In this document: positions 38,351-41,300 of the stretch, piece by piece
Position numbering within the stretch: the stretch's first letter is position 1
How the letters are laid out: every line of letters begins with the position of its first letter
Assembly: GCA_965204745.1 (NCBI GenBank)
Contig: OZ242010.1
Coordinates: forward strand, 1,600,001-1,664,000
Direction of reading: 5' to 3'
DNA: 64,000 nucleotides
Source of the DNA: Candidatus Latescibacterota bacterium
GTDB lineage: Bacteria; Latescibacterota; UBA2968
Notes under the pieces: generated by a model
The model's input: only the letters and a program-made list of their open reading frames with translations
What the model was told of the DNA's origin: nothing
Databases searched by the model: none
Made by a program: the position numbers and the translations under genes

Positions 38351-41300
38351 TCATCGAGGCGAGATGGGCAAGCCGACAAATAATCGGGTGTATTCGTCGG
38401 TGAGGGGGTCGCGTTCGTTTTTTTGTGCGGCGCGGGCAAAGACGACGCCCGGGGTTTCTGACCTGCGGGCGCGGGCGAAGACCCCATAGCCGCCGGGCGC
38501 GCTCTGCAATTCCAAATCGCTCTGAATTGCCAGCATCTCGGCGAGCGTGTTGGACAACCCCCAGCGCGCGCCAATCGCGCGGGCAAAAAGCTCCTCGGGG
38601 GTCAGCCCTTCTCGAAAACCGCGCTTCACCGGGATGAACTCGCCCCGGGCGTTTCGCACGCTGCCCTGCGGGGCCACATAGAGTCTGAGTTGCAACAAGG
38701 TCCCGCGCGCGCCACTTTGGACCAAGAGGGCGGGCACGCCGAGTTCATCGTCGTCATAGCCGCGGAATTGCGCCAACGCGGCCGACACCTCGTCCGGATA
38801 ATCGCGCCAGGCATCGGGGTCGTCGTCCGCTGGCGGCTCGGGCCACGGGAGGGATGCGCCGATGAACGCACTCATGGACGCGCCGGTTTTGCGCGCTGTG
38901 TCAAAGCCCAGGGCTTGCAAGCGCGTTGCCAAATCGAGCGCGGCTTTCGCGCCATCGCGTGCCATGGTGGCTGCCAGCCACGCCATCACTTGATTCCCGT
39001 CGACAAATTCCCCTTCCCGCGTGACCTGATCGCCCACTGCGGCGCTGATTTCCCGCAGGCCCGCGTCTGTCATGCTCATCAGCGCGAGGCCGAACAGGGC
39101 GTCGTGTGTGGGATGTACTTTTTCGCGCATAATCAGGCCCGGATCGCGCGTCAAGTGGGCAATGGCAGACAGGTGATCGCCTGCGGACGCCTGGCCTTCG
39201 GCGGTCAGGGGCACAAAGACCGCCACTTGGTCCCCGTCAAAATCGAGATTCATCAAGGCGCAAAGCCGGATGCACACGCGAATCGCGTCGCCGGCAACGC
39301 GCACCGGGCGACACGCCACAAACGCGGTTGGCGACACCGCGGGCCTGCGGAGCACAACGGCCCACAACTCGGCCATCGCCGCGTCCAAAGCCGCGGTTGC
39401 TTTTTGCGACCGCCGGCTCACTTCTTTTGCCCCCACTGCGCGTGCGGCAAAAGGGCCAAACAGGGTCCACGCCATGGCTTCGGGGATGCCGACTTGATCG
39501 TATCGCAAGTCGGCCCCCGGCACGGCGACGGACCGGCCGCTGAACAATGCACGGGTGTAAAAGCGCGCGCCCGGCAAATCGCAAAAATCGGCAACGCGCG
39601 CGCCCAGGGTTTTAAGCCCGCGCTGGATCAAGACCTCGGGCGCGGCATTGGCGATCATCTCGGTCAAGCGGTTGTTGGCCGCTTGCAAGGCGCGGGGCGC
39701 GTCGCTGCCCACATGGGTGAGGGTATGCCCGGACAACCACGGATGCGGCACCGGGCGCGCCAGCGCGATGTCCCCCCCGCGCTTCAGGGAAAATGTTGCG
39801 CCGTGGTCGTCCAATGCGACCGTGATGCCGCGGCTGTCCAACTGCTCGGTCAATTCTTCAAATGCTGGCGATGGCGCGGCCGGGACAACGGCCCCTTTGG
39901 AGACGCGCTCGGCTAAGGTGGCGGCATCGGATCGACTTGCGGAACACGTATTGAACAGATCGCGGATGACCCCAAACGCGCCTGCTTCGCGCAGGGCCAA
40001 AAAGTCCGCCTCGCCCACTTCTTGACCGGGCCGGCCGGGCGCGACCCCCATGTGGATTTTGTCTTGGGTGTTCGACCACGGGATCGCCATCGCCTTCACG
40101 GGCCGGCCGGGCGCGACCCCCATGTGGATTTTGTCCGCGGCCAGATGCGACGTGCGGCCCCAGTACACCCAGCCCACGGTCGTGCGGCGCAACAGGGGTT
40201 CACCGTTGAGGCGCAGCGCGTCCATGCCGTCTTCGGGCAAGCCGTGTCGCTTCAACTCGGCGCGGATTTCATCGTCTTTTGGCGCGGCAAAGATGGGCGC
40301 GATCACCGGCTCGCCTTTGGCTTTTGCAATGCGGCCCATGACGGCTTCGCGCACCTGCCCAAAGTTGAGGCGAGACACCAGGCCGCACACGCTCATGATG
40401 AGTTCCACAGGCGTGCCGTCGGACAGGGTGGGCATTTCGTCGTCGGGCACAATGCGCGATACCACGCCCTTGTACCCGTGCCGATTGCTGAGTTTGTCGC
40501 CCGGGGCGACGCGGTTGGGTTGCATCATGCGATGGGCCGCGGATTCGCTCAGGACGAGTGCGTCTTCGTGTGCGTCCTCATCCCATGCCATGAACGCGGT
40601 GAGCAAGTTGTACCCAGTCCAAAAATGGGGATCGCGCGGTTCGCACCCGGTTTGCACCAGCGCGGGTTCGGATTCCAATACCGCGCCGTCGTATTGCGCG
40701 TGGTAGGCATGCCACGCGCCGCGGTCATCGCGCGGCATATCGGGGCCTGGCGCGCCGATCCACTGGCGCATCATGTTCACGCCCATCAAAACGCGATTCG
40801 TGTCATCGTGTTCCAAAAACGGGGTGACGGACGCGCCAATGCCCACGCGCTTTTCGGGCGAATCGTCTTCGATCACCAACTTGCCATCGCGGATGGTCGC
40901 GCCCTGTGCCACCTCCAAAATGCGGGCGATATTCGGACCTTCGGGCGTGCAATAGGGGCAGACGCGCCCATCGTGAGATGGGTGATACCCGTTTGCCAAC
41001 CCCTCGTCCTGATCGAGAATGGGGAGCAATGTTATCCGCCGCAAGTGAACGTGCATGTCGTGAGAGTTGGTCGCCTGCAAAAAGTGAGACGTGGATTCAT
41101 TCGTGAAAAATGCGCGAATCCAATCGCCCAATGGCATCCACGTCGCAACGCTGTTTTCGAGCATGTTGGGCATCCCATCCAACCGGCGGGCGATATAATC
41201 GCGCAGTTGCTCGCCCACGCAATAAATATCGGCACGCGCCAAATCCACCTCGGTGGGCACGGGCACCACGGTGCGGAAAAAGCCATCCACCTTAAACCGC

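Follow-up and report, generated by a model that had tools for sequence, protein, structure and literature searches.

The flap tip of the beta subunit is the textbook anchor of bacterial sigma factors: it determines how far apart regions 2 and 4 are placed, so that promoters with a -35 and a -10 element can be read. Can such promoters still be read by an RNA polymerase that has lost its flap? The question is raised by a two-gene locus of Candidatus Latescibacterota bacterium (GenBank assembly GCA_965204745.1, contig OZ242010.1), which lies in the stretch of 64,000 nucleotides (nt) from position 1,600,001 to 1,664,000 that was analyzed here and that we refer to as the window. One gene encodes a single-chain mini RNA polymerase (P0001), and the gene upstream of it encodes a sigma factor of the extracytoplasmic function (ECF) type. 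A first inspection of the letters (the sequence-only reading) had proposed that P0001 lacks the whole beta flap although its partner sigma keeps region 4. Our analysis confirmed and extended the observation of flap loss and partly supported the interpretation first placed on it. The flap is gone, yet the sigma factor, its region 4, and a strictly spaced bipartite promoter, which is a new finding here, are kept across several phyla.

The polymerase gene and the site of the deletion have the following positions in the window:

38351..41506, minus strand: single-chain mini RNA polymerase P0001, 1,051 amino acids (aa), assigned with Pfam, phmmer against PDB, an AlphaFold2 (AF2) model, and VIA-align
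39230..39250, minus strand: catalytic N-L-D-F-D-G-D motif, residues 753-759, aligned with NADFDGD of the host enzyme
40475..40567, minus strand: flap-deletion junction, residues 314-344, defined by translation, phmmer, BLASTP, a hidden Markov model (HMM), and a count of junction lengths
40514..40543, minus strand: stump loop, residues 322-331, which replaces the flap

P0001 is a fusion of a beta-derived part (residues 1-566) with a beta-prime-derived part (565-1051), encoded by a reading frame of 3,156 nt that is intact over all 1,051 aa. Pfam matches follow one another in the order Rpb2_3, Rpb2_6 (9.2e-36), and Rpb1_2, and phmmer searches of PDB chains returned a beta chain at E = 2.1e-48, matched in several regions, and a beta-prime chain at E = 1.2e-26. 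The host genome also carries a normal RNA polymerase, with a beta subunit of 1,258 aa and a beta-prime subunit of 1,368 aa. Its RpoB gene is located at 2.51 Mb on the same 5.48-Mb contig as the window, and P0001 is 33% identical to the product over 240 residues (BLASTP). In a 63-sequence alignment of the mini-polymerase family (A1), the catalytic residues D755, D757, and D759 are nearly invariant, while the beta barrel keeps E314-D315 and G336-D337-K338...R342-H343-G344, which are invariant or nearly so. P0001 carries three marks of a two-double-psi-barrel core: the three-aspartate motif, the basic GDK...RHG signature with its ED pair, and a bridge helix (model residues 970-1001, aligned to about 749-779 of host beta-prime).

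At the junction, the translation runs from E314 to residue 327 on the ED side, continues with M-Q-P-N-R (328-332), and goes on from V333 to residue 344. The sequence-only reading had described the ED segment as joined to the RH segment via about five residues, MQPNR, at 40490-40570; we saw exactly this arrangement, at nt 40475-40567. In the phmmer alignment, query residues 297-322 match Bacillus subtilis beta 755-780 and residues 326-564 match beta 912-1143, which leaves approximately 131 residues of B. subtilis beta missing. Against host RpoB, BLASTP paired query residue 321 with host 768 and query residue 332 with host 1026, and the family HMM left host 769-1023 unmatched, flap included. Approximately 255 residues of host RpoB give way to a 10-residue loop in the mini-polymerase. 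The earlier estimate that canonical RpoB has more than 200 residues here is correct for host RpoB (~255) but too high for B. subtilis (~130). The ED-to-RH stretch is exactly 30 residues long in 58 of the 63 aligned relatives (the other five have 31, 31, 32, 41, and 51), and the model is confident across it, with a predicted local distance difference test (pLDDT) score of 90 for residues 321-330 and 95 for residues 331-340. Such constancy argues that the deletion is no effect of chance or assembly and, together with its presence across the family, suggests that the flap was lost once, in the family's ancestor. Passages in PMC7824862 describe the beta-barrel flap as a sandwich-barrel insert that is common to all cellular beta subunits and that provides a sigma-binding site.

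Could a different part of the chain stand in for the flap? The AF2 model of P0001, made with A1, reached a pLDDT of 92.7 and a predicted template modeling score (pTM) of 0.92, and we compared it with 48,161 chains using VIA-align. Range 2-566 superposes on the bacterial beta chain 6j9e_C (517 residues, Z 26.9, root mean square deviation [rmsd] 2.6) and range 565-1051 on the beta-prime chain 6edt_D (474 residues, Z 16.7, rmsd 3.2). The N-terminal domain, residues 5-145, finds its counterpart in structures of the beta1 domain alone (3mlq_A, Z 9.5; 4kbj_A, Z 8.4). No unassigned domain of flap size was left in this comparison. Since nearly all residues superpose on beta or beta-prime, there is no room for a substitute flap, and we rejected that candidate. 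A flap equivalent elsewhere in the chain, which the sequence-only reading had named as the observation that would speak against it, was not found in the AF2 model. The sole low-confidence stretch (residues 468-490, pLDDT <50) falls within an insertion:

40028..40135, minus strand: lineage-specific insertion in P0001, with a 12-residue peptide occurring twice (458-469 and 482-493), disordered in the model

The two copies of the peptide are 24 residues apart and lie within the conserved beta C-terminal region (residues 458-493, window 40028-40135). The 99%, 91%, and 89% relatives share the insertion, which those of 1,028 aa do not have. BLASTP placed the 12 residues between the copies on a canonical segment that is otherwise missing from the mini-polymerase family.

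Other parts were lost along with the flap. On the beta side, P0001 is without the lobe (host 151-392), the Rpb2_45 domain (host 528-595), and about 85 residues at host 642-726. On the beta-prime side, it is without host residues 1-97, which include the zinc ribbon, and 119-254, and the HMM alignment to host beta-prime begins at host residue 268. Cysteines occur only at positions 45, 96, 183, 186, 288, 374, 521, 642, 732, 745, and 749, and a search across P0001 found no zinc-ribbon cysteine cluster. The family HMM leaves a 25-residue gap against host beta-prime 313-337, a segment that we take, from its position, to be the rudder. The earlier claim that the beta-prime zinc-binding domain and the rudder are unrecognizable stands on these two observations. 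After the bridge helix, P0001 has about 50 residues versus about 575 in host beta-prime, and no trigger loop was recognizable, as judged from sequence and secondary structure only; the loop appears to have been lost with all else that separates the bridge helix from the C-terminal segment. P0001 is neither a canonical RpoB (TIGR02013, 178.8 bits versus a cut-off of 801; flap absent) nor a canonical RpoC (TIGR02386, 104.3 bits versus 963.5; zinc ribbon and rudder absent). What has been kept is the beta1 domain, the fork, both barrels with their catalytic residues, the beta C-terminal module, the clamp helices, the bridge helix, and a short C-terminal segment. The clamp helices, a mark of RpoC that P0001 does retain, are the canonical dock of sigma region 2 and also of NusG:

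39584..39694, minus strand: beta-prime clamp helices (coiled coil), helices 605-619 and 624-641, aligned by BLASTP to host beta-prime 255-300 and supported by the HMM and the model

The partner of this enzyme is encoded just upstream, and its assignment draws on a 39-sequence sigma alignment (A2):

41561..42154, minus strand: ECF-type sigma factor, 197 aa, with region 2, a linker motif (P112, W114), and region 4 (Pfam, NCBIfam, A2, AF2 with Foldseek)

Pfam placed Sigma70_r2 at residues 23-91 (8.3e-19) and Sigma70_r4_2 at residues 134-186 (6.9e-16), the latter in agreement with the earlier statement that region 4 is kept. The protein also matched a Pfam ECF model and scored 119.5 bits against the NCBIfam sigma70-ECF superfamily model TIGR02937 (cut-off, 42.9) and consists, as ECF factors do, of regions 2 and 4 only, with a short linker between them. 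The best Foldseek matches of its AF2 model were sigmaE, AlgU, SigW, and sigmaH. The isolated model shows no order in the linker, where pLDDT falls below 50 at 97-110 and 112-116, and leaves the relative placement of the two domains free (pTM 0.47). A2 shows no variation at G173, T174, K176, S177, and R178 in the recognition helix of region 4 or at P112 and W114 in the linker. The mean frequency of the majority residue is 0.70 in region 2, 0.70 in the linker motif (111-125), and 0.67 in region 4; by this measure, region 4 is under as much constraint as region 2.

The mini-polymerase and one orthologous ECF-type sigma are inherited as a pair, and their stop and start codons often overlap. In 76 of the 80 best-matching loci, the polymerase gene is preceded on its own strand by a strong orthologue of the sigma gene (E < 1e-40). 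Among the four exceptions, the sigma gene is split in two frames in two loci, is cut by a contig end in one, and belongs to a pair on another contig in the last, in whose genome the orthologue scores 290.6 bits versus at most 116 for the 55 other ECF genes. The genes overlap by 4 nt (gap -3) in 16 of 59 adjacent sigma-polymerase pairs. No natural sigma-polymerase fusion protein was found among the 120 and 150 best matches, and from locus to locus the pair has no constant third neighbor, in a survey that included no search aimed at small or distant anti-sigma genes. One genome, labeled Chthonomonadaceae (G006; loci L052 and L091), has two mini-polymerase genes, of which one has an orthologous sigma in front; the contig ends inside that copy, and the second copy has no sigma nearby.

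Two sequence elements frame the pair:

42383..42408, minus strand: predicted cognate ECF-type promoter, with -35 TGAACC at 42408-42403 and -10 CGGTGTC at 42389-42383, from a motif in the aligned loci and a matrix
38306..38339, minus strand: intrinsic-terminator-like hairpin (10 pairs, 8 of them G-C) with a T run, 12 nt past the polymerase stop codon

In the window, the predicted promoter lies 253 nt before the sigma ATG. Of 39 aligned loci, 38 have the pattern GAACY-N15-GYGTY ahead of the sigma gene, versus an estimated chance expectation of about 0.016 per 300 nt, and the 15-nt spacing is identical in 37 of the 38 sites. The consensus across loci is TGAACY-N14-CGGTGTC, and as in ECF systems a bipartite promoter is predicted in front of the sigma factor's own gene. 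We scanned the 80 loci (1,122,238 bases, both strands) with a matrix built from 37 sites, the window's own among them; about half of the loci were in the training set. Exactly one site of at least 20 bits was found in 69 loci, in each case shortly before sigma and on its coding strand; none of the loci had two sites, and 11 lacked one altogether. The window's own site scored 30.0 bits (training median, 30.8), compared with 16.9 for the next best in the 5.48-Mb genome. Strong constraint on both region 4 and the -35 element argues that reading of the -35 is in use and is not a relic, and we regard it as retained on the strength of these alignments.

The matrix found no second good match to the promoter in the 5.48-Mb host genome. 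There, the strict pattern at spacings of 10 to 22 gave 0 to 6 matches each with no peak at 15, relaxed half-sites had no preferred spacing, and the CGGTGTC heptamer was present 623 times versus a mean of 1,058 for permutations of the same composition, which is no excess. Five TGAAC-N15-GGYGTC matches besides the operon's own were set aside, being mostly within reading frames, as were repeated matrix matches of 14 to 16 bits, which lie inside repeated coding sequence with no gene downstream. Five other carrier genomes contained 43 pattern matches versus 28 in a reversed control, with no clear regulon; two identical matches in one of them were rejected as lying within a gene on the opposite strand. 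At the other end of the operon, a comparable hairpin occurs no more than 150 nt from the polymerase stop codon in 22 of 77 loci, mostly close relatives; the controls gave 4 of 77 (reverse complement) and 0 of 77 (within the gene). Promoter, sigma, polymerase, and terminator would together make a closed two-gene operon as predicted from these elements. No cargo genes are conserved beside it: the flanks vary by lineage, and the gene after the polymerase is often convergent. An Rfam scan of 36000-44000 returned only sub-threshold matches.

How widespread is such a pair? We found 581 mini-polymerase relatives at E ≤ 0.001 among 8,000 candidate proteins and, in a library at 50% identity, 369 representatives at E ≤ 1e-30. 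The 120 best relatives are 593 to 1,069 aa long and, where named, are called "hypothetical." A relative is encoded in 437 of 446 candidate stretches drawn from one-genome-per-species contigs, so that the family covers at least 437 species genomes and seven or more phyla. By their record labels, the 80 best loci belong to Latescibacterota (43), Poribacteria (14), Chloroflexota (11), Planctomycetota (4), Gemmatimonadota (3), Armatimonadota (2), and Hydrogenedentota (1), with 2 unassigned; judged by such labels, there are also relatives in Ktedonobacteria. Near-identical DNA is present in sequencing runs of 9 studies, with none of RNA listed. Many loci sit on chromosomes of 4.5 to 8.4 Mb. An origin from a phage or other mobile element was rejected: PHROG matches were limited to polymerase-like and sigma families, and the neighbors are ordinary chromosomal genes. 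Full-text literature searches did not find a published description of the family, although an earlier mention may exist. The passages seen of the ECF classification papers PMC7826278 and PMC7671368 and of PMC2919709 do not describe it.

The pair combines features of several known polymerases. It resembles ECF holoenzymes (Mycobacterium tuberculosis sigmaH, 5ZX3/5ZX2; Escherichia coli sigmaE, 6JBQ) in its core of bacterial descent, its clamp helices, and its normal ECF sigma, and the operon promoter has the AAC-containing -35 and G/T/C-rich -10 of ECF systems. Unlike those holoenzymes, P0001 is one 1,051-aa chain with no flap or flap-tip helix, lobe, zinc ribbon, rudder, or recognizable trigger loop. 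Passages of PMC6411747 place region 2 of an ECF sigma between the beta lobe and the beta-prime coiled coil, lead the linker through the cleft and out by the RNA exit channel, and have region 4 enfold the flap-tip helix while also touching the beta C-terminal helix. Because P0001 has no flap-tip helix, enfolding of region 4 of the sigmaH type, as those passages depict it, is impossible here. The order of subunits in P0001 is that of the full-length beta/beta-prime fusions (NCBIfam NF011417 and NF007172; about 2,840 to 2,890 positions), but those keep all domains, and P0001, at 180 and 158.6 bits, stays far below their cut-offs (4,632 and 5,372). A fusion of similar size is Orf6 of the killer plasmid pGKL2 (Rpb2::Rpb1-like, 982 aa), which passages of PMC2919709 and PMC6211774 depict as a two-subunit fusion of about 1,000 aa with about half deleted, and which the latter, in 2018, termed unique among polymerases. 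In contrast to P0001, Orf6 is described in the same parts of PMC6211774 as eukaryote/poxvirus-like, with a second protein, Orf7, for the beta-prime C-terminus and no sigma, and the beta barrels of killer plasmids retain the flap insert according to passages of PMC7824862, a contrast with P0001 that is one of description.

Single-chain enzymes without a flap also exist. Passages of PMC7824862 list YonO (from the B. subtilis prophage SPbeta), QDE-1, gp66 of crAss-like phages, and gp96 of P23-45, which are in this respect like P0001, and as far as passages of PMC5467207 describe YonO-like enzymes, they too have no recognizable trigger loop. VIA-align returned weaker structural matches of P0001 in this group (7y7p_A, Z 12.2; 8h2m_A, Z 10.1; 6vr4_B, Z 7.2). 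YonO, however, has very distant homology to multisubunit enzymes, and the passages on it describe no sigma. P0001, with E = 2.1e-48 to a bacterial beta chain, does not share the very distant beta/beta-prime similarity of the YonO-like group; unlike YonO and pGKL2 Orf6, it clearly descends from bacterial beta and beta-prime and is linked with a sigma. The non-virion RNA polymerases of the jumbo phages phiKZ and AR9 are likewise reduced relatives of beta and beta-prime (7s00_C, Z 23.9; 7ogp_C, Z 19.9). They differ in being multisubunit, in having kept the flap insert, and in belonging to phages without a sigma, as passages of PMC7824862 put it.

How, then, might promoter recognition work without a flap? 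The reading that we favor, to which we give about even confidence, is a flap-independent holoenzyme of sigma and mini-polymerase that is ignited by the host core. The two proteins would form a minimal holoenzyme in which sigma region 2 would seat on the retained clamp helices, the conserved linker (with its invariant P112 and W114) would bind the polymerase, and region 4 would read the TGAAC -35 at a fixed distance from CGGTGTC. The linker, possibly with a contact near the beta/beta-prime junction, would replace the flap tip as the ruler that holds region 4. Host core with the same sigma would probably supply the first transcripts, after which the loop would feed itself; that the only good promoter of this type is the operon's own suggests a self-amplifying module. 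Binding of sigma to the mini-polymerase, placement of region 4, and the loop are steps that we infer. NusA binds the flap tip, and judging from the missing parts, RNA exit, hairpin pausing, and NusA control would be altered as well. The sequence-only reading had offered a choice in which either -35 recognition must differ or sigma uses the host core and the mini-polymerase holds it via region 2 only. Loss of the flap, zinc ribbon, and rudder, the lack of a substitute domain, and retention of the clamp helices agree with that framing; the -35 element proved, beyond it, to be conserved across phyla, and these data narrow the choice between the two options.

Several points weigh against the flap-independent holoenzyme. 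We predicted a complex of polymerase residues 1-800 with sigma from author-supplied alignments; the score was 0.47 versus 0.01 for the best of three controls, which falls in a weak band with no interface returned and with the polymerase cut at residue 800. Among solved complexes, 58 of 80 attained the mark for such scores, as did 2 of 110 mismatched pairs, but passes at 0.60 or lower came from only 7 of the 80 solved complexes and from both mismatches. At least 36% of contacts recurred between runs, the pLDDT of the partner was at least 65, and the pass may stem from a resemblance to solved sigma/beta-prime complexes. Of the sigma contacts that PMC6411747 gives for an ECF holoenzyme, only the coiled coil is clearly present. 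The 30.0-bit score of the window's site is partly circular because the 37 training sites include it. An enzyme that transcribed only its own genes, from a sigma with a single promoter, would be an odd economy. In its geometry, the promoter matches the ordinary ECF promoters that a flap-bearing core reads; this and the classical hairpin at the end of the operon fit transcription by host core, as the flap takes part in hairpin pausing and termination according to passages of PMC5467207, the YonO paper.

The last of these points lead to an alternative that we consider unlikely yet serious: the sigma would be an activator of the operon on the host's flap-bearing core, and the mini-polymerase would start without sigma, in the manner of YonO, on other templates, either alone or with some further factor. 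It would account for a region 4 and a promoter that look fully canonical, for the single promoter in the genome being placed before the operon, for the hairpin that closes it, and for the absence of flap, lobe, and zinc ribbon from the mini-enzyme; in addition, YonO, a flap-less two-barrel enzyme, elongates well as far as passages of PMC5467207 report. It would leave unexplained why clamp helices survive in a protein stripped of nearly all other accessory parts, and why conservation of the linker motif equals that of the folded domains in seven or more phyla with different host cores. The frequent 4-nt overlap of the genes (16 of 59 adjacent pairs), the lack of any other initiation factor conserved beside the pair, and, weakly, the complex prediction (0.47 versus 0.01) also argue for the holoenzyme. 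Within the holoenzyme reading itself, a sub-case that we hold to be improbable would have sigma held via region 2 and the linker only, with region 4 untethered and the spacing set by linker length and DNA. The model contains no substitute for the flap, and the disordered linker (pLDDT <50 at 97-110 and 112-116; pTM 0.47) would suit it; however, ECF promoters are strict on spacer length in passages of PMC6411747, and an identical spacing in 37 of 38 sites suggests a rigid ruler. A flap-deleted E. coli enzyme reportedly loses -35-dependent initiation (Kuznedelov et al. 2002), which also tells against an untethered region 4. That P0001 is a relic, inactive or in decay, or that its flap gap arose in assembly, is scarcely credible, and we rejected both. 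The extent of the deletions is the sole point in favor; on the other side stand a frame open for 1,051 aa, the invariant or nearly invariant D755, D757, D759, G336-D337-K338, R342, and H343, relatives in 437 species genomes with a fixed junction length and a confident model, and near-identical DNA in runs from 9 studies.

With more reservation than we attach to the holoenzyme, we suggest that many uncultured bacteria carry a two-gene machine of about 1,250 residues, flap-less, with no recognizable trigger loop and probably without alpha, in which a sigma-70-family factor would read a classical -35/-10 promoter with flap-free placement of region 4 and which would run as an autonomous, self-amplifying, orthogonal loop. 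The mini-polymerase shows how far a polymerase of the bacterial type can be reduced, and what the flap contributes to promoter recognition, to RNA exit, to hairpin pausing, and to NusA action becomes directly testable with two small proteins and a 26-bp promoter. If the pair is self-sufficient, it would offer sigma-dependent, orthogonal expression in a compact form. A sigma that targets only an operon for a second polymerase is an unexplained regulatory design.

The surroundings of the operon differ between loci. In 11 Latescibacterota loci (L004-L006, L008-L010, L013, L014, L018, L020, and L025), sigma and polymerase are separated by 1.2 to 2.3 kb, with the promoter still upstream of sigma. 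The gap is filled by a gene of about 600 aa for a fused ATP-binding cassette (ABC) transporter (ABC_membrane and ABC_tran) in nine of them and by another gene of about 390 aa in the remaining two (L010 and L013). Two co-directional genes precede sigma in 17 to 18 Latescibacterota loci (including L004, L007, L012, L016, L019, L021, L023, and L026) and are not found beside the window's operon: the first encodes about 320 to 350 aa with an N-terminal DksA/TraR-type zinc finger, and the second about 316 aa with no Pfam match.

In the window, the terminator is followed by a near-consensus sigma-70-type promoter (38242-38214, 11 of 12 positions) that serves the next genes. An open reading frame (ORF) of 136 aa (37944-38354) overlaps the polymerase stop codon; its first 56 codons span the terminator and this promoter and are probably spurious. 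An ORF of 80 aa (37944-38186), with a good ribosome-binding site and no Pfam match, precedes two genes for PhyH-type dioxygenases (37102-37920 and 36293-37171). PhyH-like dioxygenase genes adjoin the pair in 12 of 80 loci, either divergent upstream or co-directional downstream (L050, L058-L061, L063, L064-L066, L070, L073, and L081, plus the window at 36293-37920).

On the other side, a gene-free stretch of 1.4 kb separates the sigma promoter from a giant surface-protein gene, whose product of 2,493 aa (43547-51028) has Calx-beta, He_PIG, and fn3 domains and a C-terminal dockerin. Direct repeats of about 238 nt and about 149 nt, in four to five copies, fill positions 42480-43490 of this stretch and contain perfect, G+C-rich hairpins, for example, one with 24-nt arms at 42832-42855 and 42859-42882. 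For the ORFs predicted there, no homologue turned up in Pfam, in PHROG, or among the loci, which suggests that 42480-43490 is probably an array like those of repetitive extragenic palindromes (REP) or miniature inverted-repeat transposable elements (MITE).

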